A stretch of 55,067 nucleotides of DNA, taken from IMG/VR virus record IMGVR_UViG_3300027969_000130, positions 1 to 55,067 of that record; one strand, given 5' to 3'. Position numbers and translations under genes: made by a program. The stretch comes from a virus. Its lineage: Duplodnaviria > Caudoviricetes. Positions 29,180 through 45,070 of this stretch are shown piece by piece. Under the pieces are notes generated by a model. The model had not been told where the DNA came from. It searched no databases and saw only the letters and a list, made by a program, of their open reading frames with translations. The first letter of the stretch is position 1; each line of letters starts with the position of its first letter.

Positions 29180-30684
29180 AGGTCAAAGTACCTTTGCGTG
29201 CGTGGTGTGATGATGTGTAAGTTCTTCTTGGTTCTGGTGGCTGCAACATAAAACACTCGAAGCTCGTCGTCTTGATTCTCTTGATAGCCGATGTAGGTCT
29301 TGGGGCTCATGTCAGTGATGAGCAGCACGTTGTCTGCCTCACCGCCCTTGGATCCGTGGATCGTGCTGATGGTAATGCGGGGGTCGCCACTCAAAGATTC
29401 GCCCTGTCTTAACGCTGCGAGAAAATATTCCTTTTCCTCATCGCTGATGCGGTCCAAAGCCTGATGCCAGATCGCCTTGGTCTGCAGCCCGTACTTCATG
29501 TGCAGCAGGTCCATGTTGACCATGTCTTCTGTCAGCGTCTTCAAGGACAGGTGACCGTGATCGACCATCCGCTTTGACATGTGTGAGTAGACCAGCTTCA
29601 ACTGATCGGCTTGAATGAATTCTCCCTTGCGAAGCTTCTCCCAAGACCTGATGGCAAGCAAAGCCTCAGACTTACGAGGACTCATTCCTTGACACTCGTA
29701 TGCGTAGCCCTCACGATGACATAAGTCAACCAATTCCTTGAGCATGTAGACATTCCTAGCAAGCAGCAGCCATGTTCCTTGGCTCATATCAACGTGCTCG
29801 ATGTCGTTGTGGTACGTTATTGATCCTTGATGCGCAGCAGGTTTGAAAGTCTTCTCACGCCGCCGAGTGACAGATCTAATGATGTCAAAGCTGAGGTTGT
29901 GCACAACCGCCGGTATTCGGTACGACTGGTCAAGAACGCGCACATCCCCATCCAAGGATATGAAATGATCGACGTCAGCTCCTGCCCAGCGAAAGATTGC
30001 TTGGTCATCATCTCCAGCAATATAAGTTTCATCAGCCTTCTCCATCATTCGTTCTACTACCATCCACTGCAGCTTGGATAGATCTTGTGCTTCATCCACT
30101 AGCAGGGCTTTTAACTTAGGCACGAAGCCTTCTGACCGCATCAACTCAAGCATGTCGGTGTAATCGATCAGACCTTGATTGTCTTTGTACTCCTTCAGCG
30201 ACTTTCCAAACTGTTCTAATTCAAACCATCCTAAGTCGTCGTCATTCAAGTCTTCCCACTGCTGCTTGAGAGGTACGCAGCGGATCCTAGCCATTCCTTC
30301 TGCAAAGCGTAGCTTGTCGCCTTGCGCCATACCAACCAAGGTACCATCCTCACCAGTCTGGCGTCCAGTGATCTCAACGCCAAGTTCATCACACAACTCT
30401 TGATAGTGGTTGTGCTGCATGACCTGCTGGCGGCTAAGACCCAGCTGCCTGAACGCTAGGCTGTGGATCGTTCTGAAGAATGGCATCTGCTCAACAGAGA
30501 ATCCAAAGCGGGCCCGCGCCTTGTCTCTGGCTTCTGTCGTAGCCTTCTTGGTAAAGCTGATGAAACCAATCTCATCAGGCTTCACACCCTTCTCCAGCAA
30601 AGACTCGACGATGTTCATGAGTGTCGTAGTCTTGCCGGTTCCTGGCGGACCAAGGATAATCTGCGGCTTAGATGAGGCTGCCAT
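29176..30684 (-). CDS. UvrD/Rep-like (SF1) helicase
   Basis: GPPGTGKTT, FTKKA, TIHS, VDEAQD, GDDDQAIF, QSYR, TIHGSKGGE, FYVAATR; likely start MAASSK. Confidence 0.93.
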   Translation of the reverse strand: MAASSKPQIILGPPGTGKTTTLMNIVESLLEKGVKPDEIGFISFTKKATTEARDKARARFGFSVEQMPFFRTIHSLAFRQLGLSRQQVMQHNHYQELCDELGVEITGRQTGEDGTLVGMAQGDKLRFAEGMARIRCVPLKQQWEDLNDDDLGWFELEQFGKSLKEYKDNQGLIDYTDMLELMRSEGFVPKLKALLVDEAQDLSKLQWMVVERMMEKADETYIAGDDDQAIFRWAGADVDHFISLDGDVRVLDQSYRIPAVVHNLSFDIIRSVTRRREKTFKPAAHQGSITYHNDIEHVDMSQGTWLLLARNVYMLKELVDLCHREGYAYECQGMSPRKSEALLAIRSWEKLRKGEFIQADQLKLVYSHMSKRMVDHGHLSLKTLTEDMVNMDLLHMKYGLQTKAIWHQALDRISDEEKEYFLAALRQGESLSGDPRITISTIHGSKGGEADNVLLITDMSPKTYIGYQENQDDELRVFYVAATRTKKNLHIITPRTQRYFDL

Positions 30685-32191
30685 TGCTGAAGTCCGGAGT
30701 CTGATGGCCTTTATCCTGGAAGGAGAAGGCTGGCACAGACCAGACAGTGGCACGTTTCCCGTTCAGCTTATAGGTATGCGTTTCACCGCCGTAGTCACGA
30801 ATAGCAGAACTGATCTGATTGAGCTTGAATTCCTTAAACTTCTGCTTGTCAAGGAAGTTGATGAAGTCTGCCAGCCTAAACAGGTGGCGGTTGTCATCAC
30901 GGTCATGGAATGGTTTGCCAAGAAGGATCTCGTCAAGATGCTTGGCCTGCGCCTTGCCTGTGCAATAACGTTCTAACAGGTCGATGAACTGGCCCTTAGG
31001 ACTAGCATCCTCAGGAGCCTCAATGATCACTACGTCTTGCAGCAGCGCCTGTATCATTTGATTCCATTGCATCAGGTTCATCTTTGGCGGCATGTAATTC
31101 ATTGCCTCCATACATCTCTTTTGGAAGCCCGCCTGATTCTGCAGATCTTCTGTAGACAGTGACAAGCGCATTCCGTTGTCCATGTCAAGGAACCAGATGG
31201 GAGGTTCCGTGTTGTACTTGCTCAGTGATGATAGTCGTGGCGTTCCTGATTGCTGGCCCACGCCAAACTTACGCATGCGGCACATTCCAGCGTTGCAGTT
31301 GGGTCGTAGTGGCGGCCTGCTGCATGTGTACTGGTAGTCACTGTTCTGCATCGATTGAATGACCCCCATTGCTTCTGACTCAGGCAGCGGAGGATCCATG
31401 ATGTCTATATTCATCTGCATGACTAATGGCTGCCAATCATCTGGTTTCATCTTTCTTGCTAAGACGCATAGGTTGAACAGACCATTGTTTCGTGTACCTT
31501 CAGGGAAGCCTGTTTGAGCTAACTTCTCGATGCATGGAGGAGCGTCCTTATATGCTCTCTTCTTGCTCTTAGATTCTGCAAACTTAAGACGTACAAAGTT
31601 GGCTCTTGTAAGTTTAAGACCTTCAGCAAATGCTAGGAAATCATCTATCTGCATCGGGCCGCCGTTCTCAGCAACCCCGTATCTGGATGTTTGGTCGCCT
31701 TCAAAGTAAGGCATGTTGATCCAGTTGCCGACGTCACCGCGTTCAGACAACACTTGATCTTGTTTGGGAAAGATCTCGCAACTTGGATGGCCAATCACGC
31801 TGGCCAACTCACCGAGCTTTCGTTTGACATCAGCCGCCGGTATAGGCTCGCTGAAAAACATGTAAATGTGAGCGCCTCCCGACTTGCTGCGGCAGACCGC
31901 TACCGGAGCCTTGGCTTTGGCGCAAGCTTCAACGGCATCCTTAAGGTCAAAGTTCTTATATTCATCAATGTCAATCGCACCAAAGAGGCATGTGTTGTCC
32001 TCTCTGATTGGCACAATACCGATTCCTTTTGTCCCTGCTAGGTGCGCATCCCATAGCTGCTCCGTTACCGGCGCCCTCTTTGTGATTGCTGTCCCCTGAA
32101 CCTTTAGGCCAGTATTCTTGCCATCGATGTCATAGGTCCCGTAAGCACCTGTGTGCCCGGAAAATAGCGCCATGAATCTTTGTGCAAGCAT
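30668..32191 (-). CDS. Primase, AEP (prim-pol) type with PriCT-like domain
   Basis: AIDID, SKSGGAH, EIFPKQ, GNWINMPY, then PPC...EGTRNNGLF; no helicase domain. Confidence 0.82.
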   Translation of the reverse strand: MLAQRFMALFSGHTGAYGTYDIDGKNTGLKVQGTAITKRAPVTEQLWDAHLAGTKGIGIVPIREDNTCLFGAIDIDEYKNFDLKDAVEACAKAKAPVAVCRSKSGGAHIYMFFSEPIPAADVKRKLGELASVIGHPSCEIFPKQDQVLSERGDVGNWINMPYFEGDQTSRYGVAENGGPMQIDDFLAFAEGLKLTRANFVRLKFAESKSKKRAYKDAPPCIEKLAQTGFPEGTRNNGLFNLCVLARKMKPDDWQPLVMQMNIDIMDPPLPESEAMGVIQSMQNSDYQYTCSRPPLRPNCNAGMCRMRKFGVGQQSGTPRLSSLSKYNTEPPIWFLDMDNGMRLSLSTEDLQNQAGFQKRCMEAMNYMPPKMNLMQWNQMIQALLQDVVIIEAPEDASPKGQFIDLLERYCTGKAQAKHLDEILLGKPFHDRDDNRHLFRLADFINFLDKQKFKEFKLNQISSAIRDYGGETHTYKLNGKRATVWSVPAFSFQDKGHQTPDFSNGSLI

Positions 32192-32440: not shown

Positions 32441-33211
32441 TTAGTAAGGAACATCGTCATCAGCAGCTGCAACACCTTCTTGCGGAGGCTCAGCAACTTT
32501 CACAAGTCCAGCGGTTACGTCTGAACCAAACTTTTTAGCTGCGTCGTAAACGCCACGATCTTGAACCATGCTTGGATCGTTGATCAACCAACCATACCAG
32601 CTGTTGGCATCCTTAGTCTCCATGCCTGTTCCCAAGTGGTAGCTATGGCTAAACGGTGGAGGCGTGAATGACTTGTCGCCAACCTTGACTTGCAAGGCCA
32701 TCATCTGACCAAGCCAGCGGCGTGACTTCTTAAGCTGTGTCGAAGACATTGCAATCAGGGCACGTTCAAAGCCGCCTTCAGACAACACCAACACGTAGTG
32801 ATACGCAGTAGTGACGATCAGGTTGCCGTTGGCCAAGACATCTTGGTTGCGTTCGTTCTTCTTGGTCTTTTCGAGGATCTTCTCGTCAGTCCATTCTTTG
32901 ACCAAACCGCCGCCAGCTTCACGAGGAGTCCATTCAACATAGCTCTTCTTAAAGGCGCAAGGGATGACGCGGACTTCTTTCATCAGCACACCAGTGACGG
33001 TGTTGATGATCAAGCCCTCTTCAGCACCAGCAACTTTGGTGACTCCACGAAGTTCAGGCGATAAAGCCTGCAGCACCTTGAGGTACGGGATAGCGACATC
33101 GTTTGCTGACACGTTCTCGAAACCGAGACCTGCGTCTGCCATCATGTCGTCTGCAAATGCCACTAGGGCGGTCGGCTGCTGTACAGCCACTTCAGTTTTC
33201 TTAACCATCAC
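32441..33211 (-). CDS. Single-stranded DNA-binding protein (probable)
   Basis: IPYLKVLQALSP, MSSTQLKKSRRW, acidic C-terminal DDDVPY tail. Confidence 0.7.
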   Translation of the reverse strand: MMVKKTEVAVQQPTALVAFADDMMADAGLGFENVSANDVAIPYLKVLQALSPELRGVTKVAGAEEGLIINTVTGVLMKEVRVIPCAFKKSYVEWTPREAGGGLVKEWTDEKILEKTKKNERNQDVLANGNLIVTTAYHYVLVLSEGGFERALIAMSSTQLKKSRRWLGQMMALQVKVGDKSFTPPPFSHSYHLGTGMETKDANSWYGWLINDPSMVQDRGVYDAAKKFGSDVTAGLVKVAEPPQEGVAAADDDVPY

Positions 33212-33756
33212 TTACTCCTTTTGATTTTGGCAATTTGGCCGATATAAACGTTGAAAAGTTCAAGAGGAAATTCGGCTCCGCTTTCCACTTGCTCTTTGAC
33301 GAATGCTGTCAAAGTCTGAGGATGAACACCCATCTTGCCAGAATAATCCATGCCTTGCTCTAACAGCTGGGCTTTGAATTCTTCGGCCTTCTCGTGCTCA
33401 CCGCGATTGAATGTCAGGACGACTTCGTCTTTGATTAGCGCCTCGTGGCCGTGGTCTTCCAACCAGCCAAAGCACTCTTCACGTTTCTCGTCACTGATCT
33501 TGGCGCTGTAATACGGTTTGACGGTCACTTCACTACCATCTGTAAGCGTAAACTTAGCCACACCAACTTCTGCCATAGCATCAGGCAACTGCTTCTCAGC
33601 AATCTCCCTAGCCTGTTCTTTCAAGAGCTTCAGACGCGTTTCCGTGTCCTTAATCTCTTCATCAAGATCTGTGTATCGCTCTGCAAGCGTACTGATCTTG
33701 CCCAAGCCTTGATCAGATGGCATCTGACTATCGGCCAACATCTCTTGTTCAAGCAT
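33208..33756 (-). CDS. Conserved replication-module protein
   Basis: LPDAMAEVG...LTDG...WLEDHGH.ALIK...VHPQTLTAFVKE; adjacent to SSB. Confidence 0.65.
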   Translation of the reverse strand: MLEQEMLADSQMPSDQGLGKISTLAERYTDLDEEIKDTETRLKLLKEQAREIAEKQLPDAMAEVGVAKFTLTDGSEVTVKPYYSAKISDEKREECFGWLEDHGHEALIKDEVVLTFNRGEHEKAEEFKAQLLEQGMDYSGKMGVHPQTLTAFVKEQVESGAEFPLELFNVYIGQIAKIKRSK

Positions 33757-34066
33757 TTCTAGCTCCTGTAAGGTCTGCCTCTAAGGCGTAGTAACGATGC
33801 TCTTGGCGATCCCATTTCAGCATCTTGATCTTGCCGCTATTGAAGCCAGCAGCAATTGCGACGGACATACCGATGGCGATGGGGTCTCCAATAGCCAGCA
33901 GAAAATCGCTGTCCGAAAAACTCCTAAGCTTGTCACGCAAGACGCGGATGGTTGGCGCAGTGGCCATCATCACTTGTCCTGGTGGCAGCAATGTTTGAAG
34001 GTCTCCATACTCCGCAGCGGGCAGCAGGTTAAACTTCGGCGATTCTTGTACGACATAGACTGTCAT
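33749..34066 (-). CDS. Conserved hypothetical protein
   Basis: VYVVQE...AAEYG...DFLLAIGDP...LKWD; coupled on both sides. Confidence 0.65.
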   Translation of the reverse strand: MTVYVVQESPKFNLLPAAEYGDLQTLLPPGQVMMATAPTIRVLRDKLRSFSDSDFLLAIGDPIAIGMSVAIAAGFNSGKIKMLKWDRQEHRYYALEADLTGARNA

Positions 34067-34470
34067 TGTTGTCCTCCAACTTGTGCATGACGCACGATAT
34101 ACTCAGTGCAAAAAGGTGGCACGTTAAAAAGCAGGTTGTTCATGTTCTCCCAATCGAATGGCTTGGTGCAAGTCCATATCTCATAGAGATCCATCTCTCG
34201 CTGAATCTGGAGTACCTTTAGGACATTTTCGTTGCGAGCGAGTACAAATACACGTCCTCCACTTTCCTGACGCTTACGGTGCCATAGGACCTGTTCAGGA
34301 CGCAACTCACATTTGCCTTTGGCATCCAAGACTTTTAACTCTAGCCAAAGCTCGCTGCCTTCATGGCACATGTTCACGTCTGGAGTTCCTCTTGTCAAGG
34401 CGTTCTCAACGCGTTCCACGTGGCCTGGCAGCTTGCCTTTGACCAGAGCCCAAAACTGGCTTTCCTTCAT
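34063..34470 (-). CDS. PD-(D/E)XK nuclease, Holliday-junction resolvase/VRR-NUC-like
   Basis: MKESQFW...RVEN...GTPDV...WLELK...Q..W; ATGA overlap with polA stop. Confidence 0.8.
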   Translation of the reverse strand: MKESQFWALVKGKLPGHVERVENALTRGTPDVNMCHEGSELWLELKVLDAKGKCELRPEQVLWHRKRQESGGRVFVLARNENVLKVLQIQREMDLYEIWTCTKPFDWENMNNLLFNVPPFCTEYIVRHAQVGGQQ

Positions 34471-36329
34471 AGCTTCACCTCCACCGCTTCTCCCCAATTG
34501 GGTCCAAGCTCGCAATCTACTTTCAATGGCACGACCAAGTCCACGCATGTCAACATCTCCTGACGAATCATTCGGGCATGATCCAAGTCCCGTACACTGA
34601 AGTCCAATTCATCGTGAATAGTCAGATGAGGAACTTCGCCTTTTTTGAACAAGTTGATCATCGCCATCTTGATCATGTCTGCCGACGAACCCTGGATCAC
34701 CGCGTTCATTGCCTTGTGGACAAAGTAACGCTTTAAGGGCAAGCCGTACTTCTCTTCAGCCAAGTCTTTCTTCAATGGAATAAGACCTGGGCTGTACTTT
34801 GGTGGACCAAACAACTGGAACCTACGGCGCCGTCCAAGGAATGTCTTGACATAGCCGCGATTGGTTGCAATCCGCGTGCATTCCTCACCAAGCGCCTTAA
34901 TGAATGGCACGTTGGCATGGTATTGCTCGTAGACGCGTTTGGCTTCTGCTGGCGGCAAGCCAAGCTGAGTGGCTGCCTTGGCTGCTCCCATACCGTAGGC
35001 CAATCCAAGGTTTAGCGTCTTCGCATTCTTTCGACTGATTCCAGCCATGTCTGCAACAAGCTGATGGTAGTCAGTATCAGGGTCATCAAGGTAACGGTTA
35101 CGCGCCGTCTCAGCTCCAGGAAAATTCCGTAGGTAGCTGTAGTGAACCGTGACACGAGGCTCTTGCTGCGAGTAGTCAAAGACGCCCCATTGGCAACCTT
35201 CTTCTGGTACAAAGATGCTTCGAATAAGAGGCGCGAGCACCGGATCTCGAGCTGGTACCTGTTGCATGTTCGGATTAGACGACGCAAAACGCCCCGACTT
35301 TGTGCCACCTCGATCGTCTCTGACCTGTCTGAATGTTGGGTAAATCTTGCCATCTTTTTCCATCTGAATGATCTTGCTGTCGATAAATACTCCACCGGCC
35401 CGGTCAAGCTTCCGGACCTTCGAAATCAAGGAGAAAAATTCATGTTCACTAGCTTCAAGAAACTCACTGGGAAAACTAGCATTCCCCTTTTCAGTCTTTG
35501 GGTAATCCAGCTTCAATGCGTCACTGGCTGCCTGTATATCGTCACCAGACCAGATGTCTACATCCCGCTCTGCAACCTTCTTCAATTGCTCCGTGAGCTT
35601 GCCTTGCTCATCAAGTAACTGAGCCTTGACTTTTTGGGCGCGGTCTAGATCGACAGGAACCCCACGTTGACGCATTGCTACCAGTACATCGACAAGCTGC
35701 GTCTCAATGTCAAAGACTTCCCAGAGCTTTTCGTCGTGCAGCAAGACTTCTTGTTGTGCAAAGATACGGATCGGCAGGTCTGCGTCTTTGCGTCCGTAAG
35801 GAGCCACTTCAGAAGCATGAAACTGCCAGAGGTTTTCTTTGACCTTACTAGGATGAATACCGCGTCTGACTGCTGCTGCAATCAAAGCCGTCTCGTCTTT
35901 TGTCTCGCCAAGGTAAGACTGCGCCAAGGCATCAAGCTTGTATGTGATGCGATCCTCATCAAGCAAAGGTTCTGCAATCTGCACGTCGTACTTAGGACCA
36001 CCGACCTTGACATTCTCTGTCAGCAACCATTCCAAGTCGTAAGGTAAATTCGCGCCCACCTTTGGAATGTCTGTTTTCAGCATGTCACGAAGCCAAGCAA
36101 ACGCATTGTCGGGGTTGAGGTTCCCACCTGCTGCATGACGGACAGGATAGTATTCAGCAAATCCATCGTCTGTAGCCACAGAGAATCCAACAATATAGCC
36201 GTCTTTTCGTACACCGCCAGGTCCTTTAGTCATTAAGTTCGGGTCGCGCGTCTCGCAATCGATAGCTATTCGCTTTGCTAGCAGCAGATTGGGAAAGTGC
36301 TTCGGCGGTTGATATGATGATTCGTCCAT
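34467..36329 (-). CDS. polA: Family A DNA polymerase (3'-5' exo plus pol, no 5'-3' exo)
   Basis: ExoI DCET, ExoII NLPYD, SGRFASSNPNMQQ, motif A DYSQQEPR, motif B KTLNLGLAYG, IQGSSAD, motif C IHDEL. Confidence 0.95.
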   Translation of the reverse strand: MDESSYQPPKHFPNLLLAKRIAIDCETRDPNLMTKGPGGVRKDGYIVGFSVATDDGFAEYYPVRHAAGGNLNPDNAFAWLRDMLKTDIPKVGANLPYDLEWLLTENVKVGGPKYDVQIAEPLLDEDRITYKLDALAQSYLGETKDETALIAAAVRRGIHPSKVKENLWQFHASEVAPYGRKDADLPIRIFAQQEVLLHDEKLWEVFDIETQLVDVLVAMRQRGVPVDLDRAQKVKAQLLDEQGKLTEQLKKVAERDVDIWSGDDIQAASDALKLDYPKTEKGNASFPSEFLEASEHEFFSLISKVRKLDRAGGVFIDSKIIQMEKDGKIYPTFRQVRDDRGGTKSGRFASSNPNMQQVPARDPVLAPLIRSIFVPEEGCQWGVFDYSQQEPRVTVHYSYLRNFPGAETARNRYLDDPDTDYHQLVADMAGISRKNAKTLNLGLAYGMGAAKAATQLGLPPAEAKRVYEQYHANVPFIKALGEECTRIATNRGYVKTFLGRRRRFQLFGPPKYSPGLIPLKKDLAEEKYGLPLKRYFVHKAMNAVIQGSSADMIKMAMINLFKKGEVPHLTIHDELDFSVRDLDHARMIRQEMLTCVDLVVPLKVDCELGPNWGEAVEVKL

Positions 36330-36723
36330 TTTTTATCCAAAGTTGTTTTGCTTCTTGGTGAGGGTAATCAGACACATACACGATGCGCCTGCAGCTTGTG
36401 TTCAAGAGCAATTTCATACAGGTCATGCATGGCATAGCCGTGACATACGCCGTATCTATTTGATCCACGTCTTTGCATTGGAGGAGGGCGTTCTGTTCCG
36501 CATGAATAGCTTCACATACATCCAAGCCAGTCCCCGAAGGCAAAGAAGCACCGGGACAGCGAACGTCAGTGCAATGAGTATGACCACGAGGCACCCCGTT
36601 ATAACCAGTACTGAGAACATGCCCACGAGAAGATATGAGAACGCAGCCCACACTCCGCCTAGCGCAAGTGGCTCTTCGAGCAACGAGTAAAGCCAATTCC
36701 GAAAAGTATTCATCTCTGTTCAT
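36226..36723 (-). CDS. dCMP deaminase-family protein
   Basis: TCARRSVG, TGYNG, HAEQNA, PCMTC zinc motifs; ATGA-coupled to TS homologue. Confidence 0.9.
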   Translation of the reverse strand: MNRDEYFSELALLVARRATCARRSVGCVLISSRGHVLSTGYNGVPRGHTHCTDVRCPGASLPSGTGLDVCEAIHAEQNALLQCKDVDQIDTAYVTAMPCMTCMKLLLNTSCRRIVYVSDYPHQEAKQLWIKNGRIIISTAEALSQSAASKANSYRLRDARPELND

Positions 36724-37514
36724 CCTTTCCATGTTGATAATTCCTTGAGAAAACCGTTCTTAGATGTTCCATAAGCCACGGCCCACAAGTGATTGACCAA
36801 GTGGTCGTAGTCATTAAAGTCATTCAGATTGATTGGCTCATAGTCGCCAAGAATCTCACCTGACAAGCAAGGTTCTACCTTGTCCCAATTCTCTTCATAC
36901 AAGTGTTGGCTTGCAGCATAGAAGTGCAAGGCACCAAGCTTGACAGTCATGCCCTTCTCACGCAGCATCAATGCAACGCCGGCTGACAGCATACTGAAGT
37001 TGAACCAGTCGTAAGGCACGCCAAGCCAAGCATCAGAGGAACGCATGTTCATGAAGCAATGGATCATGCCCATCCGGATAACGAACTGGCAGCTGATGGT
37101 ACATGGGATGTCTCTTGATGCACGAGGGTTTGGCCGCCAAATGGTGATGACAGCTTGACGCGTGTCTGGATCACCGAGTAACGACTGAACCACGTGAGAC
37201 AGTTGATCGCGTATTCTTGGTCCATAGGCGCCAAAGAAAAGGATACCGTCGTCAGAGAAGTTGCTGATCTGTTTGCTAAACGGGGCAATTGTGCTGACGC
37301 GGTTATCGCCAGCCATGATCCATGCTGCTTCAGCTGCCATAAACTTGTAGCCAAGATTGCGCTCCTTGATAGTGATGACAGGCTGGTTCATGTCAATCAT
37401 TGACTTGAAGCCCATTAGTTCCTTTGTACGTTTTCCACGTGGGCTGGTATCGATGCCACTGTTCATGATGACATCTAACAAGCCTTGCCAGTTCATGTTG
37501 GTTGTGTTAACCAT
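36720..37514 (-). CDS. Thymidylate-synthase-superfamily enzyme, probably dCMP hydroxymethylase/methylase
   Basis: AEAAW, GAYGPR, TRQAV, catalytic DIPC, MRSSDAWLGVPYD (Asp at the Asn177 specificity position), HLYE. Confidence 0.8.
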   Translation of the reverse strand: MVNTTNMNWQGLLDVIMNSGIDTSPRGKRTKELMGFKSMIDMNQPVITIKERNLGYKFMAAEAAWIMAGDNRVSTIAPFSKQISNFSDDGILFFGAYGPRIRDQLSHVVQSLLGDPDTRQAVITIWRPNPRASRDIPCTISCQFVIRMGMIHCFMNMRSSDAWLGVPYDWFNFSMLSAGVALMLREKGMTVKLGALHFYAASQHLYEENWDKVEPCLSGEILGDYEPINLNDFNDYDHLVNHLWAVAYGTSKNGFLKELSTWKG

Positions 37515-38499
37515 TGATGACCTCCTCAAGTTGTAGTAAAAACTCTTGACGCTTGTTGAAGCGCTTTGCATAAGATGGATGCATGACCTTATGAATCTTG
37601 CGAGTGAAATCGCTCATAGTGTCGTAAGCCTGATTGCCAAAGCAGATGACCTTCATGTAAGGCTTTGCACGTAAACAATCATTGACGTACAAAGGACCAT
37701 TGCCATCATGCGCATTGATGTAGATTGCTCTAGTCTCATCAAAGGACAATGAATGCAAAGCATCAGCAAAGAATTCGCTGCAATTGGCAAAGTCGTAAAA
37801 GGGCCAGCTGACTGCCCGCATCTTGCTGTTGGCTTTGTCACCTACAAAGATGATGTTGGCTTCATGCAAGTGACCTGCAAAGTTCTTGGTGTGCAAGTGC
37901 AAAGCAGGCTCATATTGCTTCATCAGTCGTGATTGAAGGACAGACATCACCATGTCAATGTAGACATCAAGATTGGTACCTTCAACGTCATAGCGATATG
38001 GCAGCACATCATCACGCATGCGCATACCAAACACAGACAGCTGTTGTGCGTAGTCATAGTCATGGCCAGACAAACCACCTTCAAACAACTCATCAAAGCG
38101 CTTGCGAACATGATCGACGTTGTCATACATCTCTTCGCGTTCACCTTTAAGCTGCTCAAACTTTTCAGCATGGTTAGCAGGTGATTGAGTCAAGATGTAG
38201 ACGCCACCAACCTTGCGGATGATGCGATCAATCATGCGACCCATGTGAGGCCAAGGGCTGCCATTACGATACACCTCTGCATAGATGGCTTCGCTCATCC
38301 AAAGGCGATCGATCACAACCAAACGTGAACGCGACAACTTCAATGCACGATGCAAGGCGGCTGTGTGATACAGCGGCATCTTTGAAGGCCAGCGATATGT
38401 GTTGTGAATGTAGACGCCATCGTGGCGTTTGCAAATAGCTTCAGCAAGCGTAGTCTTGCCTGTTCCATCACAACCGTCAATGACAATAATGCCTTTCAT
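37507..38499 (-). CDS. dNMP kinase (P-loop, TMK-like) fused to a uracil-DNA-glycosylase-like domain
   Basis: IDGCDGTGKTT and VIDR.W.SE kinase motifs; C-terminal IIFVGDKAN...PF...YIN...VICFGNQA...HPSY. Confidence 0.7.
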   Translation of the reverse strand: MKGIIVIDGCDGTGKTTLAEAICKRHDGVYIHNTYRWPSKMPLYHTAALHRALKLSRSRLVVIDRLWMSEAIYAEVYRNGSPWPHMGRMIDRIIRKVGGVYILTQSPANHAEKFEQLKGEREEMYDNVDHVRKRFDELFEGGLSGHDYDYAQQLSVFGMRMRDDVLPYRYDVEGTNLDVYIDMVMSVLQSRLMKQYEPALHLHTKNFAGHLHEANIIFVGDKANSKMRAVSWPFYDFANCSEFFADALHSLSFDETRAIYINAHDGNGPLYVNDCLRAKPYMKVICFGNQAYDTMSDFTRKIHKVMHPSYAKRFNKRQEFLLQLEEVING

Positions 38500-38885
38500 T
38501 CTTTCTCCTTTCTGATGAGGTCCGTAAGCGTTGGAGCCACGAATCCTGCAGGTTTCACTATATCATAGGTAGACCCGCGTTTGCTATCTTCTTGCCTTAA
38601 AGCGCGCACTTTTTTCATGTTTGCTTCATGCACCCTTTTGAAGCCCTCGTCAAAGGGCAAGCCTGATAAGTAGGCCGCCCCAAGAGCTACGTAGACCAAG
38701 TCAATCAGGCCGTCAAAATACTCTTCCAAGTTGCCATTGATTGCTGCTGCTCTGATCTCGTTCAACTCTTCTTGCAGATGAGCGTTCTTGAGCTCCCAGA
38801 TCTCCCTCACCGGAAAGTCAGGCTGGGCAGTCGGTTCCAGACCAAACTTCTGATGAAACTCTGCTACCATCTTTGACAGATCCAT
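38496..38885 (-). CDS. All-alpha NTP pyrophosphohydrolase (MazG/PRA-PH-like)
   Basis: FHQKFG, LQEELNE, DGLIDLVYVALG, VHEANMKK, IVKPAGF. Confidence 0.85.
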   Translation of the reverse strand: MDLSKMVAEFHQKFGLEPTAQPDFPVREIWELKNAHLQEELNEIRAAAINGNLEEYFDGLIDLVYVALGAAYLSGLPFDEGFKRVHEANMKKVRALRQEDSKRGSTYDIVKPAGFVAPTLTDLIRKEKE

Positions 38886-38887
38886 GG

Positions 38888-39742
38888 TTACTCTCCAAGG
38901 TAGTCAAAGAGTGGCTGCCAGGCTTCGCTGCTTGACAGGGGCTTTGTGAGGTCTGCAAATTTGCCTGCGCTAAACATCTCAGTATTTTTCGGCAGTTTGA
39001 CCCGCCAGAGCACGTTCCGAGAACGGTGAGGATATAAGGGGGCAAATATAGTTGCCAAGTAATTGCTGTCGTAGTAATCACGCAGGCGGCTGAACACTGA
39101 ATCGAGATCATCTTTGGCGATCATTTCCTTGTAGTCTTTGATTGAGGCAAAAGTGCCGAAGTGGTCGTCAACTTCCAAACCAACCTTGTGAAGCATCAAC
39201 TGCATCACTTCGTAGGTCATCTCGTTGACGTGGTTGTCTGCTGCACCGACTTGTGGGTCGTAGACAGGGGTGGACAAGAAGGCGACGCCGTCATCAGTCA
39301 AGCGATCACGGATACCTTCCAGCATCTTGTAAGCATGCAAAGGCTCAACGTGCTCAAGGACTTCAAAGCTTGTGATGACGTCAAACTTCTCATGAGGCAG
39401 CTTGCAGTCTGGGAAGGCCACGTTGCCAATCAGAGTGGGCTTGAACTTGGTGTTCTCAAAAGCCTTAGGCATTTCCAGCTTGTTGTAGTCAATGCCGATG
39501 TAGTCAAGACCATCTGACGCCATACGACTGGTCATCAGCATCTTTGCCAACGGTACGTCTTTGCCGCAGCCAATGTCAAGCAGCTTGCAATCCTTGCGGT
39601 GTTTAGGGTTGCCCATCCACTTTGCTACATGCGTCCAACGTAGACAGTGGGCGATGTAGTCTCTATGAATGAAACCACGTTCCTCAGCCTGATCAATGCT
39701 CAGGTGAGTGTTGTCGATAGACTTTCCTCTGGCGTTTGCCAT
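38888..39742 (-). CDS. Class I SAM-dependent methyltransferase (small-molecule type)
   Basis: LLDIGCG motif I, YIGID, FDVITSFEVLEHV, LSTP; no DPPY/NPPY/PC DNA-MTase motif. Confidence 0.85.
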   Translation of the reverse strand: MANARGKSIDNTHLSIDQAEERGFIHRDYIAHCLRWTHVAKWMGNPKHRKDCKLLDIGCGKDVPLAKMLMTSRMASDGLDYIGIDYNKLEMPKAFENTKFKPTLIGNVAFPDCKLPHEKFDVITSFEVLEHVEPLHAYKMLEGIRDRLTDDGVAFLSTPVYDPQVGAADNHVNEMTYEVMQLMLHKVGLEVDDHFGTFASIKDYKEMIAKDDLDSVFSRLRDYYDSNYLATIFAPLYPHRSRNVLWRVKLPKNTEMFSAGKFADLTKPLSSSEAWQPLFDYLGE

Positions 39743-39767
39743 AATTTTCTCCTAGAGTGGGAATGAA

Positions 39768-39783
39768 GGGGGCCGAAGCCCCC
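39768..39783 (-). terminator. CUUCGG hairpin after DUF932 gene
   Basis: GGGGGC-TTCG-GCCCCC followed by TTCATT. Confidence 0.5.
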
Positions 39784-39788
39784 AGGTT

Positions 39789-40775
39789 TTAGGCTGCTTC
39801 AGCGAACTCGACGGCTAAGTCAAGTGCTTGGCGTTTACGAGTAGCAGCTGAACCAAACCACGCGCTTGTCAGACGCTTGTCTTGATCAGTTCCAGCGACG
39901 TGATCGTAGTAGTACGTCACGGCGTTGAATGCGCCCCACCAAGTACCTGCTGAAGTCTTCAGATCAGCGCCTGGTTGGGTGTGCACGATGTCAATCAAAC
40001 GGTTGACCGTACGGCCAAGATCTGAACGATTGACTTGACCATCTTCAGAAGCAATCAATGCTGCTTGATATTGGTCTGGATTGACAAGCTTGGAAAAGAA
40101 TTCCATGACTTGTTGATCTTTAGCGCGTTTCTTAGACAGAAACTCTGCTTGCTGCTTGAACACGTCGAGCGATTTCATTGCAAGGCCAACTTTTTCCGCA
40201 GCAGTTTGCTTGATCTCGTCGTCAAATGCGCGATCGTGTGACATGCGGAATGTGTTCTCCTTGTTTTTATTATCGCGAAGAGCGGCCGTCAGCGTGTTAT
40301 TACAAACAACGCGGATTGGCGTGAACATGATCTGCAGGCTGCGACCCCAGATGTGTGGATTGTCGAGCAAGATGTAGCCTTCGACTTCGTCTTTGCCGCC
40401 CAACATAAAGCCGCCGTTGATCTTTGCAAGGCCCCAAACACGCTTGCCACCATGAAGAGAACCTGCAGTCTCCATCTTCATATCGCCGGCTTTGCAGAAC
40501 TTGTCAAAGAACTCAAAGACTTCTTGGTTTTGTGTGGGGTTGTAGTCGCTGCCGCAGACGCCAAGGATCTTGCTGTCTGTGTCGCGCACCAAAGCGTAGT
40601 GGCTGCTCAACACGTGGTCGAGTTCGTCGACGACCAAAGCTTTCTTCTTGACTTGCCAGTTGAGTCCAGCTGCTTCGAGCATCTGGGCAGGAGTCAAGTT
40701 GTCAGCGACAGGGGTACCAAGGCCGTGCCAAGGGGTCTCATTGGCGTAAGCCATCGTTTCAACTTCATGTGACAT
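39789..40775 (-). CDS. DUF932 (phage/plasmid-like protein TIGR03299 family)
   Basis: PWHGLG, AGLNWQV, ETAGSL.GG..VW.LA, TPIRVVCNNTL, GTWWGAFNAVT motifs. Confidence 0.88.
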   Translation of the reverse strand: MSHEVETMAYANETPWHGLGTPVADNLTPAQMLEAAGLNWQVKKKALVVDELDHVLSSHYALVRDTDSKILGVCGSDYNPTQNQEVFEFFDKFCKAGDMKMETAGSLHGGKRVWGLAKINGGFMLGGKDEVEGYILLDNPHIWGRSLQIMFTPIRVVCNNTLTAALRDNKNKENTFRMSHDRAFDDEIKQTAAEKVGLAMKSLDVFKQQAEFLSKKRAKDQQVMEFFSKLVNPDQYQAALIASEDGQVNRSDLGRTVNRLIDIVHTQPGADLKTSAGTWWGAFNAVTYYYDHVAGTDQDKRLTSAWFGSAATRKRQALDLAVEFAEAA

Positions 40776-40831
40776 GATAAATACCTTTCTTCTTTCTGTT
40801 TATGCTAGCAGGATTGCTGTGCATGGGATTG

Positions 40832-40861
40832 ATTCTAGTGCGTAAAACCACGCAGCGCGCA
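40832..40861 (-). promoter_or_regulatory. Early promoter P2: TGCGCGC-N17-TAGAAT
   Basis: Same architecture as P1/P3, A-tract upstream, dyad TGCGT...ACGCA in spacer. Confidence 0.65.
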
Positions 40862-40900
40862 CTTTTTTTAAAATAAATGCTATCACTTATACCAGCTGGG

Positions 40901-41068
40901 CTCAAATTCCCTATAGAGTGATTCTAGAGCCATAACAGAGTGTATCAGTTCAATTAAAAACTATTCTAACACTCGTTCGCTCGATAGCATAAGGCTGCGC
41001 GAAGCCAAAACAGAGAATACTAGTACACTCTGTTTTGGTCTAGAAAATCATCTATAGCGTTTTTGGAG
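40901..41068. repeat. Palindromic element B (homologue of element A)
   Basis: Left arm CTATAGAGTG...TAACAGAGTGTA (40901-40944), right arm TACACTCTGTT...CATCTATAGCGTTTTTGGAG (41024-41068); aligns ungapped with A for about 83 bp. Confidence 0.8.
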
Positions 41069-44000
41069 TTCTGCCAGACCGCCCCTGGCCTTGCGGGTCA
41101 AGGCTTCTTGGTCTGTTACGCGGAACCAGTTACCTACGCCGCCAGAACCACCGGCTGGTCTTTCATAGCCAGAGAATCCACCTGCCTTAGCAACACCTTC
41201 CATCACGAAGTCCTTGCCTTGCGCGGTATCGTAGATCTCCTCGCCTGTCATTGCCTTGCCTTCTGGCAGCTTGTTGAAGAACCTGCGCATCAGTTTTACA
41301 TCTTCAGGGCTGTAGGTCTCTTCAAAGCGAAGCAACTTGGCTGCAGGCACGTCAAACTTGTTGATCATAGGAGGGCCTTCTTGCCCCATCTGAGTCATCT
41401 TGTCTTGAGCCCGCTTGATTGCATAGCCTTGGTCAGTAGTTACGTCTAGATTCTTCTCCCTGTCTAAACGGATACGGCTAGGACCTCCATGGAGGACCCG
41501 TAGCAGGCCTTCTGCTGCATCCTTCATGTTGCCTACACGTCCACCACTCTGGAAGCCCTGGGGAGCCGTAGGAGGTTCCTTGGGTTGTTCTTCCTCAACT
41601 ACTGGTTCCTTCTCCATCATTCGCTTGCCTGTTTCCAGGGCAGCAGCGCCACCAGCCATAGGCGGAAGTAACGGAGGAGCCACAAAGCCGTACAGTTTTT
41701 GACCTTCCTTGTTGATCTTTTCCTTCATCTGAGGAGTGATGTCAACTGAGAATGCCTTGATTTTTTCTGCTTTTGGTTGCTCAAGTCGTTTTATTGCTAG
41801 TTCACGAGCAGCTGCTTCTACCCCGCGATCCTGGAATTCATCCATGACATTCCACCAAGCATCTTCCCATTCTGGGCTGTTTGGGTGAAGGCCTTGTTCA
41901 CGAAGCGCCTGATCAGTCAAAGCGTGGGTGCGCTCCATTGCCATTTCCATAAGCTCATCGTCATCTCCGTTAGCAATATCGTCCATCATTCTTTGGATTT
42001 GGCGCTCTGAGACTTTACTTTTGGTGCAGGGGTTCTCAAACTCCATATAACCGGTTGGTGCCTTGAATTCCTTGCCCGCGTAATTCTTGACATAGGAAGG
42101 CAAGCGCTGGTCATAGAATGACTTCATGCCTTCGCCGCCAATGGTCAAGTCTGGTCCGGTGATTTTGGCAAACGAGGCAAGGGGCGGATAAGTTCCTGAT
42201 TCTGGATTTCCTGCCTTGTCACGAACTACGTGGAATTCTTGCCATTGTTCAGGGGTGCGCTCTCCTTCAGGGATAGCCTCAAGCTCTTTCAGTCTTACTT
42301 CTTCAGGAGACAAGTTGCGAAGCTTGTTTGACTTGAGCCAGTTTGTATATTCGTCGACCATTTCGCTTGCAATACTTTCACCAGCAGGTGTTCCATCAAC
42401 ATCAAGTTCCCAACGTTCTTGGTAGTCACGCAGCCACTTCTTTTGGTCGGTGGTCATACGGTCGCCGTACTCCCACAGCAAGTCACTAACGTCCTTGTCG
42501 TCAGGCATAGCATCCGTGCGCTTAACTGGGCTCTTCAGAAGATCGTGAAGCTCAGGAGCCTTGTCTTCGATTTGCTTAGCAATCCCAGCTCCAAACACCT
42601 CTGTAAGAGTCTTGCCTTCGCCAGGGCCTGAGACAAATGTGTCGCCAACAAGCTTGCCATCAAAAACAGTACGGTCGCCTTTTTTGCCCTGAATCATCAA
42701 TGAGCCATCTTCTGCTGGGTTGTAGTTGATCGAGTCAACGGCCTGACGCAAGCCGCTTTCATATCGCTTGACTTGCTCAACACCAGGAGAGAACGCGACC
42801 TTGTCATAGCCTTCTTTAGCAGCCAGGTCTAAGATGTCCTTGGTAGCAAGCTCATGCCAGTTCTTCTTGAATGGGGCATCAGGAACTTTACTCTCAATTC
42901 CAGAGGCTTCTTTTCTTAGTTCATCAACGATATACTTTTCAGGAGAAGTTGTGTGAGTACGAGTATCCGCCCCCTTACGAGGTTGACCTGTCTTAGGATC
43001 AACTTCAATAACAGTCACAGACCAGTCGTACTTGGTTTCATCCGTTGCTTTTTTAGTTGCCCAACGCTCAGCGGCCTCACCTTCAATGCCGGCACTCTTT
43101 GCACGCTGAATGGCGTAGTCATAGGCCTTTTTATAAGCTGGGCTTCCTTCGCCTGAATTAAAAGACAACACCTTGTCCATACCGCCGTATCCAGGAACAA
43201 TCTTTCCTGGTGTGAAGTATTCCTTCAATTCTTCTTGGTTCATCCCAGTGTTCCGGAGACGCTCCATCTTAGAGTTCAGCTGATAGAGCTTTTCGTCGTC
43301 CTCAGCAGACCGATAGCCAAAATTCTCGTCAACCTGTTTTTCAATTTCGGCTTTGCGTTCTTTGTTTAAGCGATTAAAGACCGACCTAATCTTGTTCTCA
43401 TTTTCGTTAGTCACATCAGTCGAGCCAACCTCAGCAAGAGCCTTTTGACGAATGTCCGTGCGCTCAGACTCAAGGATCCTCTTGACTTCACGCTTGCGAG
43501 CATCACGAGCCTTTTGGTGCCAGTCTGATTGGATCTCGTCAACGTACAAGACTTTCTCACCATTAGGGCCAGTCATGTCAGAGACGCGGTAATGAGCCAA
43601 GACATCTGGATCGTCCCAGTGGCTGGCAGTAAACATCTGACGCTCGGTGGTGACCTTGTCAATCAGGGAATTAAGTTCCTTGTTGACTGCTGCCGCCTCT
43701 TCTTCAGTTGCTGGATTGCTTTTTAAAAGCTCATCGATGCGCTGGCTTATGGCAGCAGCTCCTGGAGCAGACCTGTCTTCATGCTGAAGCAAGATCTCAC
43801 GATAGTTGTTTTGGCCTTTGCTCTTGCTGTATTGACTAAACTTGGTATTTGTAGCACCCAAAGCCAAGTCAAACTGTTCTTCTGCTTCTACAACAGCCCG
43901 CCTTACGTTTTGAAGAAGATAAGCTGATTCAGAATCAAGCTTCCCTGTTGCAGGATCAACTGGAATTCCAAGCTCTTCTGGATCCATATTCCTGACTTGT

Positions 44001-45070
44001 TTTGCGTCAAGGATCTCACCTGTTTCGGGATGAAAAAAACCTAAGTTTCGTCCGGTTGCAGGATCAACAACAGGCTGAATGTTTAATTCTTCAAGCGCAT
44101 TTTCAAACCTTTTTTCAAGACGGGGTTGCCATTCCGGATCCAAGCCTTGTCCAAGCTTGATTCGCTTAGGGATTGGTGGCTTGTTTGCAGCAATAGTCTT
44201 TTGCAATTCTTCCTGAGTGATCTTAGGAGATGCTTGTAGCTTTTGCTTAATGGCTCTAGATTCAAGTTCTTCTGGCTTAATGCCTGGAGTGGTCTCAAGC
44301 TGCTTAAGGATCTGCTCGCCAGTTCCTTTTTTCTGCTTTAGCGTATTGATCGCCTTGTCAACAGCAGAGAAGAACGTAGCGACCTTGCCAACCTTGCCGC
44401 CTTCTTCGTACTTTTGAATCAGGCCGCCCAAGGCTTTTTTGTCTGGCTCGCTAAAAGCTTCAACAGCCGTGCCTATTGATCCGCCAAAAGCCGTTCCAAT
44501 ACCGTAGTTGATGGCTCTTGGATCGACTGTAGGAGACAGATATTCGATAGGAGCAGCAGCAACCTTGCCGGCCATTCCCATCTTCTTTGCTCCGCCAAGG
44601 ATCTTGTTCATCAAGGCGCCAGGAACCGGCAACTGACCGAGCATCTCGCCGCCAGCATAAGAAAAGTGCTCAAGAGCCCCTTTAGGCTCATTGATACCCA
44701 TGTCCTTACGGACGGCTTCCTTGATCTTGCCTGCCTTTTTATCAGCTGCAACCGCAAAGTCTGGAGCGTACTTTTCATCTACAATACCAGCAACTGCTGG
44801 AATAGCCACGGTGTTGTAGTAGATGCCAGGAGTTCCCTTGCCCACGCCAACTTCGCCTTTGTCGTCAAGGCCAGACCACTGGCTTCTAAAACCAGCAGTC
44901 GCTTGCTTGGCTGCCCTGACTACGGAGTCAAGAGTTTCCTTGCGGCTTTCAAAAGCTCTTTTGGTGTCTGGGTTAGAAGGAGTTTCCTTGAGCTTTGAGA
45001 TGGAGTCTCTAATCTCCTGAGCCTTGTTCCCTTTTTCGTACTTCTTTTCGAGTTTGTCGAGGTCACTCAT
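41048..45070 (-). CDS. Large polyvalent internal virion/ejection protein (1340 aa)
   Basis: Last gene of the ejection cluster; central HYR...LYVDEIQSDWHQ / APFKKNW / GYDKVAF domain; C-terminal ART-PolyVal-like segment; domains separated by xxxGG motifs. Confidence 0.65.
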   Translation of the reverse strand: MSDLDKLEKKYEKGNKAQEIRDSISKLKETPSNPDTKRAFESRKETLDSVVRAAKQATAGFRSQWSGLDDKGEVGVGKGTPGIYYNTVAIPAVAGIVDEKYAPDFAVAADKKAGKIKEAVRKDMGINEPKGALEHFSYAGGEMLGQLPVPGALMNKILGGAKKMGMAGKVAAAPIEYLSPTVDPRAINYGIGTAFGGSIGTAVEAFSEPDKKALGGLIQKYEEGGKVGKVATFFSAVDKAINTLKQKKGTGEQILKQLETTPGIKPEELESRAIKQKLQASPKITQEELQKTIAANKPPIPKRIKLGQGLDPEWQPRLEKRFENALEELNIQPVVDPATGRNLGFFHPETGEILDAKQVRNMDPEELGIPVDPATGKLDSESAYLLQNVRRAVVEAEEQFDLALGATNTKFSQYSKSKGQNNYREILLQHEDRSAPGAAAISQRIDELLKSNPATEEEAAAVNKELNSLIDKVTTERQMFTASHWDDPDVLAHYRVSDMTGPNGEKVLYVDEIQSDWHQKARDARKREVKRILESERTDIRQKALAEVGSTDVTNENENKIRSVFNRLNKERKAEIEKQVDENFGYRSAEDDEKLYQLNSKMERLRNTGMNQEELKEYFTPGKIVPGYGGMDKVLSFNSGEGSPAYKKAYDYAIQRAKSAGIEGEAAERWATKKATDETKYDWSVTVIEVDPKTGQPRKGADTRTHTTSPEKYIVDELRKEASGIESKVPDAPFKKNWHELATKDILDLAAKEGYDKVAFSPGVEQVKRYESGLRQAVDSINYNPAEDGSLMIQGKKGDRTVFDGKLVGDTFVSGPGEGKTLTEVFGAGIAKQIEDKAPELHDLLKSPVKRTDAMPDDKDVSDLLWEYGDRMTTDQKKWLRDYQERWELDVDGTPAGESIASEMVDEYTNWLKSNKLRNLSPEEVRLKELEAIPEGERTPEQWQEFHVVRDKAGNPESGTYPPLASFAKITGPDLTIGGEGMKSFYDQRLPSYVKNYAGKEFKAPTGYMEFENPCTKSKVSERQIQRMMDDIANGDDDELMEMAMERTHALTDQALREQGLHPNSPEWEDAWWNVMDEFQDRGVEAAARELAIKRLEQPKAEKIKAFSVDITPQMKEKINKEGQKLYGFVAPPLLPPMAGGAAALETGKRMMEKEPVVEEEQPKEPPTAPQGFQSGGRVGNMKDAAEGLLRVLHGGPSRIRLDREKNLDVTTDQGYAIKRAQDKMTQMGQEGPPMINKFDVPAAKLLRFEETYSPEDVKLMRRFFNKLPEGKAMTGEEIYDTAQGKDFVMEGVAKAGGFSGYERPAGGSGGVGNWFRVTDQEALTRKARGGLAELQKRYR

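Follow-up and report, generated by a model that had tools for sequence, protein, structure and literature searches.

The virus record IMGVR_UViG_3300027969_000130 (Duplodnaviria; Caudoviricetes), which was analysed over its whole length of 55,067 bp and is referred to as the window, carries a cluster of six genes at 34467-39742 on the minus strand. This cluster probably serves a T4-style pre-replicative replacement of cytosine in a small freshwater tailed phage. According to sequence comparisons and structure predictions, an S-adenosylmethionine (SAM)-dependent methyltransferase (MTase) would stand in the place of the T4 glucosyltransferases and most likely methylate 5-hydroxymethylcytosine (5hmC). 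Sequence analysis, predicted structures and genome comparisons back this interpretation to the extent that evidence of this kind can. Its core is a T4-like pre-replicative synthesis of 5hmC in a new arrangement, and the linked MTase is undescribed as far as our literature search reaches.

An earlier note on this DNA had described six adjoining or overlapping genes for the MTase, a MazG-like pyrophosphohydrolase, a deoxynucleoside monophosphate (dNMP) kinase fusion, a thymidylate synthase (TS) homologue, a dCMP deaminase and a family A DNA polymerase (PolA). The head-to-tail arrangement of these open reading frames (ORFs), their coordinates and their domains were confirmed by ORF calls and Pfam, and the PHROGs matches are consistent with the Pfam assignments. 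In the order given the genes are spaced by +2, -4, -65 (-8 with a later TS start), -13 and -104 nt. A motif scan detected intact catalytic motifs in the cluster enzymes other than the TS homologue, the active site of which is described below.

The window has a CheckV completeness estimate of 99%. The stretch was present, as a whole or in part, in 20 sequencing runs of 11 studies labelled as freshwater, lake, aquatic or plain metagenomes, in every case in the form of assembled contigs.

Thymidylate synthase homologue

The TS homologue (36720-37571, minus strand; 283 aa), a predicted dCMP 5-hydroxymethylase, matches the Pfam family Thymidylat_synt (PF00303; 7.9e-21; 74.8 bits, cut-off 24.3) with its Cys aligned to C146 of ThyA. 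The ATG at 37512-37514 is the more likely start and results in a protein of 264 aa. The best solved relative is the CMP 5-hydroxymethylase MilA (PDB 5b6d, E 1.5e-22), while true TSs follow from about 1e-14, so that MilA beats every TS by eight orders of magnitude.

The residues which distinguish the members of the TS superfamily were identified in an alignment with ThyA, T4 gp42, SPO1 gp29, the Xp12 enzyme and phage relatives. The motif RDIPCT (37098-37115, minus strand) contains the catalytic Cys corresponding to ThyA C146, an Asp at the position of L143 and a Thr at the position of H147. The peptide RSSDAWLGVPYD (residues 177-188 of the window protein; 37008-37043, minus strand) keeps the Asp of ThyA D169, and its final residue, an Asp, pairs with Asn177 of E. 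coli ThyA, with VPYD lying opposite PFN. The Asp at this position, which the earlier note had claimed, is therefore real.

In E. coli ThyA numbering the signature of the TS homologue reads D143/C146/T147/D169/D177. At positions 143/147/169/177 the window protein (D/T/D/D) is identical to the dCMP hydroxymethylase gp42 of T4 (D/T/D/D), whereas the dUMP hydroxymethylase gp29 of SPO1 has D/N/D/N, the Xp12 enzyme, which forms 5-methyl-dCMP, has N/P/D/D and E. coli ThyA has L/H/D/N. The Asp three residues ahead of the catalytic Cys is common to the window protein, T4 gp42, SPO1 gp29 and MilA.

According to the accessible parts of a 2026 study by the Weigele and Peters groups (PMC13326640), an Asp at position 177 (N177D) results in dCMP/cytosine specificity, an acidic residue at position 143 accompanies hydroxymethyl products, and D169N is the mark of flavin-dependent 5-hydroxy-dCMP synthases. 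In the MetaGPA study (eLife, PMC8670742), as far as its text was available, positions 177 and 147 discriminated best between modified and unmodified contigs. By these published rules the TS homologue is presumably a folate-dependent dCMP hydroxymethylase. The proposal of the earlier note that dCMP is converted to 5-(hydroxy)methyl-dCMP is supported and can be narrowed to the hydroxymethyl product, as suggested by D143, with D169 pointing to a folate-dependent enzyme and not to a hydroxylase.

The scans of the window for further genes of nucleotide metabolism comprised a Pfam scan of 51 ORFs, which left out ORFs below 110 aa and three overlapping ORFs, and six-frame searches with PF00186, PF02511, PF00535 and PF00534. 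They revealed neither a dihydrofolate reductase (DHFR), nor ThyX, nor a glycosyltransferase, the last in agreement with what the earlier note had stated. A hydroxymethylase leaves its folate unoxidised, and the absence of DHFR from the window thus fits such an enzyme. In Xp12 a DHFR directly adjoins the TS and the deaminase.

Several other activities were considered for the TS homologue and do not agree with its residues. A canonical ThyA does not fit the replacement of Asn177 and His147 by Asp and Thr; the NCBIfam TS equivalogs reached 17-64 bits on this protein compared with cut-offs of 108-427. A dCMP methyltransferase of the Xp12 type was not matched, since Xp12 and 18 of 18 relatives have N143/P147 and the window protein D143/T147. 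The same applies to a 5-hydroxy-dCMP synthase of the RB69 gp48 type, as position 169 (RSSD) keeps its Asp instead of an Asn, and for this reason the synthesis of 5-hydroxy-dCMP followed by O-methylation to 5-methoxycytosine was also rejected. A pathway of the 5-hydroxymethyluracil (5hmU) type was dismissed because of the Asp at position 177 and the absence of the MTase from 39 of 39 SPO1-type loci.

Methyltransferase

The MTase (38888-39742, minus strand; 284 aa; Pfam Methyltransf_23 9.4e-14) matches five Pfam MTase families and contains motif I (LDIGCG) from residue 55, preceded by a conserved N-terminal extension, which identifies it as a class I SAM-dependent MTase. The motifs (D/N/S)PP(Y/F/W/H) and PC were absent according to a motif scan, and no Pfam DNA-methylase family was matched. 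The earlier description of the protein as an MTase without the catalytic motifs of DNA MTases is thereby borne out. In the rest of the genome the Pfam scan and six-frame searches mentioned above revealed no DNA methyltransferase either.

The AlphaFold 2 model of the MTase has a predicted local distance difference test score (pLDDT) of 87. Foldseek retrieved only generic small-molecule or RNA class I MTases at a template modelling (TM) score of about 0.5. In an exhaustive structural comparison CmoM (4htf) ranked first with a Z score of 19.3 over 210 aligned residues at a root-mean-square deviation of 4.8, followed by a second match at Z 17.7 and by Trm9 on rank 4 (Z 17.0). No DNA MTase was among the matches listed in either search. 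The entry 4htf is the E. coli enzyme CmoM, which, according to the available text of PMC10516636, adds a methyl group to the oxygen at the end of the C5 side chain in the wobble uridine. Since many unrelated MTases score closely behind, the similarity to CmoM is a lead on the substrate of the modelled enzyme, not a proof.

Foldseek searches (PDB, BFVD) as well as PDB-sequence profile, NCBIfam and ESM Atlas searches did not identify the acceptor, since every match was either to a generic MTase of class I or to a viral cluster without a name. The MTase belongs to a large virus-specific family with 1728 relatives in metagenomes at E<=1e-5, and its ESM Atlas clusters are 95-100% viral.

Conservation of the methyltransferase-linked cassette

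A scan of IMG/VR confirmed 188 MTase relatives on viral contigs, the best 80 loci of which were kept. Blastp detected the MazG-like gene at 73 of these 80 loci, the kinase at 51, the TS homologue at 60, the deaminase at 60 and PolA at 42. A profile hidden Markov model (HMM) raised the number of loci with a TS homologue to 65. The remaining 15 loci all end 0-5 kb from the MTase on the side where their relatives carry the TS, and for two of them (L012 with L092; L035 with L118) the TS was located at the opposite end of the contig.

The co-occurrence of the MTase with TS genes of the Asp type, suggested in the earlier note as a check, turned out to be strongly positive. All 65 MTase-linked TSs have D143/C146/D169/D177, accompanied by T147 in 64 cases and S147 in one. 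Clustering at >=40% identity divides them into three groups of 43, 16 and 6 members, and some are just 22-32% identical to the TS of the window. At least four gene orders occur around the MTase, among them MT-MazG-Kin-TS-Deam, TS-MT-Deam, TS-MazG-MT and MT-MazG-TS-Deam.

In the reverse direction, 80 loci were fetched with the TS clade of the window, and 69 of these could be evaluated (at least 3 kb upstream). The MTase was found at 61 of the 69 loci, MazG at 61, the kinase at 66 and the deaminase at 60. MazG is present in 59 of the 61 MTase-positive loci compared with two of the eight MTase-negative ones, and the deaminase in 58 of 61 compared with two of eight. A contrast set consisted of 57 loci fetched with the Xp12 TS, 18 of the Xp12 type (N/P/D/D) and 39 of the SPO1 type (D/N/D/N). 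The MTase family was detected at none of the 57 (0/18 and 0/39), whereas the same HMM detected it at 80 of 80 loci of the positive set. The MTase thus travels with dCMP-hydroxymethylase chemistry and not with 5-methylcytosine (5mC) or 5hmU chemistry.

The eight MTase-negative loci differ in their gene content. Five of them (L157, L160, L161, L163 and L168) carry the TS together with PolA and at most a short kinase, as does Pelagibacter phage HTVC200P, and are also devoid of MazG and the deaminase; at L150 no partner gene was seen. At L158 (4063-4989) a pyridoxal phosphate-dependent enzyme adjoins the kinase, and L165 (2291-4033) encodes a different, shorter Methyltransf_23 protein (25% identity) and a C5 cytosine DNA methylase. 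The other enzymes that these last two sister cassettes carry in the place of the MTase suggest a variable "tailoring" slot.

As a separate observation, the TS homologue of HTVC200P (L004, 4508-5786), which is annotated as "thymidylate synthase", has D143/T147/D169/D177. The TSs of the five sparse loci named above belong to the clade of the window at 48-49% identity and mostly occur with the short kinase, in a context like that of HTVC200P. Phages of the HTVC200P type may contain 5hmC.

Kinase fusion and further enzymes of the cassette

The dNMP kinase fusion (37507-38499, minus strand; 330 aa) was matched by the Pfam family Thymidylate_kin (5.6e-6) with 26.6 bits, just below the cut-off of 27 bits and over the P-loop only; NCBIfam gave P-loop matches to dTMP kinase. 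Its AlphaFold 2 model has a pLDDT of 92.4. The N-terminal half up to about residue 190 (about 37930-38499, minus strand) is a P-loop dNMP kinase with GCDGTGKT at residue 9, the fold of which resembles TMP kinases according to Foldseek matches to YorR (2axp/3kb2) and to vaccinia, yeast and bacterial TMP kinases.

The C-terminal half (residues 195-330 approximately, about 140 aa; about 37510-37915, minus strand) adopts a fold of the uracil-DNA glycosylase (UDG) superfamily and contains VGD..N, WPF and HPSY motifs. Foldseek matched it to the family 4 UDG of T. maritima (1l9g, E 2.1e-5, target-normalised TM 0.55) and to many UdgX entries. Family 4 UDGs are characterised by GE(A/C)PG and HPS motifs and by four Cys ligands of an Fe-S cluster. 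An alignment of 26 sequences revealed altered motifs (VG(D/E)xxNP, HPSY) and no invariant Cys in the domain of the fusion, which for these reasons is not a family 4 member. At most of the loci with a kinase the fusion could be aligned from end to end, as was the case for each of the 26 aligned sequences, and a few loci have shorter kinase-only proteins. The fusion is conserved over dozens of viral contigs and undescribed as far as the literature search reaches. Based on its predicted fold, the C-terminal domain probably recognises a pyrimidine base, and it may select the modified nucleotide or act on DNA.

The MazG-like all-alpha NTP pyrophosphohydrolase (38496-38885, minus strand; 129 aa; PRA-PH 8.8e-14) belongs to the MazG family (PF01503, 52.1 bits, cut-off 21.3; phrog_671, 6e-24). 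It carries the acidic motifs ELNE (residue 40) and EYFD (residue 55), has DR2231 as closest solved relative (3.4e-7), and is by sequence a candidate dCTPase/dUTPase.

The zinc deaminase (36226-36732, minus strand; 168 aa; dCMP_cyt_deam_1, PF00383, 1.8e-21, 76.4 bits) was assigned to the dCMP deaminase family with the zinc motifs HAE (residue 77) and PCMTC (residue 101). Its solved relatives include the dCMP deaminases of S. mutans, human and T4, and it is 31% identical to the deaminase of Xp12. The accessible portion of the NEB deaminase preprint names TS, MafB19-deaminase, PRA-PH, DNA_pol_A and its exonuclease as the five domains that most often adjoin dCMP deaminases where contigs are predicted to have modified cytosine, and reports that these deaminases prefer 5mC/5hmC substrates; a linked SAM methyltransferase is not discussed in the preprint.

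The last gene of the cluster encodes PolA (34467-36329, minus strand; 620 aa; DNA_pol_A 1.1e-58) with a 3'-5' exonuclease domain (DNA_pol_A_exo1, 7.2e-8).

Cassette in cultured phages

Among 50,697 phage records only four distinct phages encode relatives of the MTase, namely AXL3, PW916 and two metagenomic phages from Manatee Spring. In all four the closest relatives of the TS homologue are accompanied by the pyrophosphatase and by the deaminase, with an unchanged gene order, and in MW202510, one of the four, PolA and a VRR-NUC protein follow exactly as in the window. The cassette corresponds to gp27-gp31 of AXL3 (L170, 24050-28084) and to ORF58-63 of PW916 (L003); in PW916 and MW202621 the kinase fusion gene was left unannotated. 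The cassette is therefore already in cultured phages, under the annotation of thymidylate synthesis, which is also the interpretation given in the available text of the AXL3 and PW916 papers. The residue pattern of their TS homologues contradicts this annotation.

Restriction data exist for AXL3. As far as the published account was accessible, only TasI and Tru1I, both with A/T-only sites, cut AXL3 DNA out of 37 enzymes, and the 35 enzymes which it resists, including KpnI and Eam1105I, all have G/C in their sites. The AXL3 genome contains 13 KpnI and 14 Eam1105I sites. Eam1105I and AhdI presumably have a common recognition site. The fully 5mC-substituted DNA of Xp12 is digested to completion by KpnI and AhdI, according to the accessible text of PMC7653180. 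The comparison argues against plain 5mC as the product of the cassette. The resistance pattern of AXL3 leaves 5hmC and a 5hmC derivative undistinguished.

Proposed pathway and alternative explanations

In the proposed pathway the MazG-like enzyme would hydrolyse dCTP, and dUTP as well, to the monophosphate and thereby clear the canonical precursor. The TS homologue would then convert dCMP to 5-hydroxymethyl-dCMP with methylene-tetrahydrofolate, as its four diagnostic active-site residues suggest. The P-loop kinase domain would phosphorylate the modified dNMP, a host NDP kinase would complete the triphosphate and the phage PolA would incorporate the modified nucleotide. The deaminase may yield dUMP/dTTP or hydroxymethyluracil nucleotides from the cytosine pool, these being candidate substrates and products. 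The MTase, which is linked to this chemistry by co-occurrence, presumably depends on 5hmC and would most likely methylate it at the level of the nucleotide or of the DNA.

By analogy, 5-methoxymethylcytosine, i.e. the product of an O-methylation of 5hmC, is our leading guess for the final base and the most economical reading. In its most far-reaching form the proposal would be that a previously undescribed base, methylated 5hmC (most likely 5-methoxymethylcytosine), wholly replaces cytosine in widespread freshwater, marine and soil phages by means of a virus-specific SAM O-methyltransferase acting on 5hmC nucleotides or new DNA, and that the UDG-fold domain is a new base-recognition module, serving either to select the modified nucleotide or to clear DNA of unmodified pyrimidines. 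We put this combination forward tentatively, as possible but doubtful in its entirety. In a literature search of limited coverage no description was found of methoxymethyl-cytosine in phage DNA or of an MTase-linked cassette of this kind.

Several observations speak against the methylation of 5hmC by this cluster. The authors of the residue-143 rule term it a correlation in the available sections of their paper (PMC13326640), Xp12 has a polar Asn at this position yet forms a methyl product, and five of seven deaminase-linked TSs tested in the NEB deaminase preprint, as far as it was accessible, gave 5mdCMP. The fold of the MTase is generic, as the top match is followed at a distance of no more than 3 Z units by dozens of class I MTases unrelated to it (Z 15-19 for many), and its similarity to UbiG and PKMT is limited to the SAM-binding core. 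The same limited literature search returned no precedent for a SAM-dependent O-methylation of 5hmC. The MTase is furthermore not obligatory, being missing at 8 of the 69 evaluable loci of the TS clade. Finally, the surveyed loci are phylogenetically related, so that the counts exceed the number of independent events; descent alone is a poor explanation for the recurrence over three TS clusters and several gene arrangements, which would be hard to explain in this way.

Some of these observations would also be expected if 5hmC itself were the final base and the MTase acted elsewhere, on RNA, a host factor or a small molecule, its linkage being due to shared early expression or modular inheritance. 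The fold and sequence of the MTase indicate no substrate, its structural neighbours include cap and tRNA MTases, and both the MTase-negative loci and the HTVC200P-type pelagiphages with TS and short kinase only do without it. Such a scenario nevertheless seems unlikely, since a linkage that extends over three TS clusters and several gene orders (65/65), is absent from all 57 loci of the other types and follows the presence of MazG and of the deaminase is hard to understand without a dependence on 5hmC.

A modification of 5hmC nucleotides or DNA away from the hydroxyl, e.g. at N4, or the transfer of a non-methyl group from SAM is regarded as distinctly improbable. At the 18 Xp12-type loci, where an N4 acceptor would be available as well, the MTase is absent, and the closest structures, CmoM and Trm9, are C5 side-chain O-methyltransferases. 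The hydroxyl is also the target in the precedent of the 5hmC carbamoyltransferase, which acts on both 5hmdCTP and DNA according to the accessible text of the MetaGPA study (PMC8670742). The acceptor atom is not fixed by the fold, given that such class I MTases span N-, C-, S- and O-methyltransferases as well as enzymes of the CmoA/CmoB type.

A pathway as in Xp12, with a TS homologue that makes 5-methyl-dCMP, a deaminase that makes dTTP from 5-methyl-dCTP and DNA containing 5mC, is considered very unlikely. Asp177 by itself would fit a dCMP methylase equally well, the neighbourhood of deaminase, TS, PRA-PH and PolA is the one reported for modified cytosine in the accessible portion of the NEB preprint, in which most tested TSs formed the methyl product, and the deaminase is related to that of Xp12. 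Against this stand residues 143/147, which are those of T4 gp42 and not those of Xp12 and its relatives, the lack of DHFR in the window and, as far as reported, the resistance of AXL3 DNA to KpnI and Eam1105I.

An ordinary thymidylate supply, in which the deaminase provides dUMP, the TS dTMP and the kinase dTDP for canonical DNA, is hardly credible although dTMP synthesis draws on the same domain families and the AXL3 and PW916 papers, in their available text, read the genes in this way, because neither Asn177 nor His147 of ThyA is kept, no TS comes near MilA as a match, all 65 MTase-linked TSs share the non-ThyA signature, and AXL3 reportedly also encodes ThyX and has restriction-resistant DNA.

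The methylation of 5hmC, if true, would be of interest in several respects. Hypermodifications of phage DNA determine which restriction, CRISPR and other nuclease defences are escaped, and they are a source of tools for epigenome sequencing. The known 5hmC derivatives in the cited literature bear sugars or carbamoyl, so that a methyl ether or otherwise methylated 5hmC would be a new member. As the MTase family is large and tied to dCMP-hydroxymethylase cassettes, the modification may occur widely in viromes of aquatic origin. Certain methods of sequencing and cloning may recover too little of the DNA of such phages or misread it. The annotation of phage therapy candidates is also affected, in which cassette genes are now labelled as thymidylate synthase or thymidylate kinase.

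Genomic context

Nearly every gene of the window lies on the minus strand. The downstream neighbour of the cluster (34063-34548, minus strand; 161 aa) is a small nuclease-like protein with matches to phrog_2165, phrog_93 and phrog_5702, which is annotated as VRR-NUC in the syntenic phage MW202510 and occurs at 37 of the 80 MTase loci. Upstream, and mentioned as context only, a DUF932 protein (39789-40775, minus strand; 328 aa; Pfam DUF932 2.3e-46) is encoded, which was found at 42 of the 80 loci. A tRNA scan of the window detected none, and promoter and terminator sites in 33500-41500 were no more numerous than in shuffled sequences. When the whole cluster was searched against the phage collection at the nucleotide level, only five short matches of 1-3% coverage resulted, and hence no close relative there.

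Just downstream of the cassette a conserved trio of consecutive genes without an assigned function (32441-34066, minus strand) matches the Pam3 gp34-, gp33- and gp32-like families (8.7e-61, 1.6e-33 and 2.5e-29). A 507-aa protein (30668-32191, minus strand), probably the phage primase, matches PF22548 (1.1e-20), the archaeo-eukaryotic primase domain known from the "TOTE conflict system".

On the other side of the cluster two neighbouring giant ORFs (41048-45070 and 45063-49214, minus strand) encode proteins of 1340 and 1383 aa without a significant Pfam family, and two further orphan ORFs of 615 and 688 aa lie beyond them. The early region has at its left end a gene for a FabF-like beta-ketoacyl-acyl carrier protein synthase of 376 aa (53597-54727, minus strand; Pfam Ketoacyl-synt_C 1.4e-16; NCBIfam fabF 4e-33, far under the equivalog cut-off), which is unusual for a phage of 55 kb.

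Comparison with known systems

CmoM and Trm9, the nearest structures to the MTase model, carry out an O-methylation on the C5 substituent of a pyrimidine, the wobble uridine of tRNA. They differ from the MTase in their low identity (14-15%) and in their acceptors, which are carboxylates on tRNA. MilA (5b6d) shares with the TS homologue the Asp three residues before the catalytic Cys, the Thr after it and the Asp at the N177 position, but it uses a ribonucleotide in the mildiomycin antibiotic pathway of Streptomyces. For the enzyme of the window dCMP is the presumed substrate rather than CMP because genes for a dNMP kinase, a DNA polymerase and a dCMP deaminase adjoin.

The cassette for 5-carbamoyloxymethylcytosine described by MetaGPA (PMC8670742, accessible text) likewise combines a TS homologue, PRA-PH and a dCMP deaminase with one variable enzyme that derivatises 5hmC. 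In the window this variable enzyme is a class I SAM MTase instead of a carbamoyltransferase, and its product is predicted only.

In Xp12, too, a TS homologue with Asp177 adjoins a deaminase of the dCMP family and cytosine is replaced pre-replicatively. Xp12 differs in the N143/P147 of its TS, in the DHFR and the HAD hydrolase beside this TS, and in the lack of an MTase of the window family.

The closest cultured counterparts are AXL3 and PW916, with five of the genes in conserved order, an MTase of 33% identity, a D/T/D/D-type TS of 50% identity and a full-length kinase fusion. These phages are siphoviruses of Xanthomonadaceae with a GC content of 63%; their PolA does not adjoin the cassette, and AXL3 encodes ThyX.

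In the 5hmC pathway of T4, gp56 acts as dCTPase/dUTPase, gp42 as dCMP hydroxymethylase, gp1 as dNMP kinase and cd as dCMP deaminase, and alpha- and beta-glucosyltransferases also belong to it. The window has the same four enzymatic roles, with a TS homologue that carries the D143/T147/D169/D177 of gp42. It differs from T4 in the low identity of this TS to gp42, in the lack of a glucosyltransferase, td and frd, and in its organisation as one contiguous cassette beside a family A polymerase, in which a SAM MTase is present and the kinase bears a UDG-fold domain.

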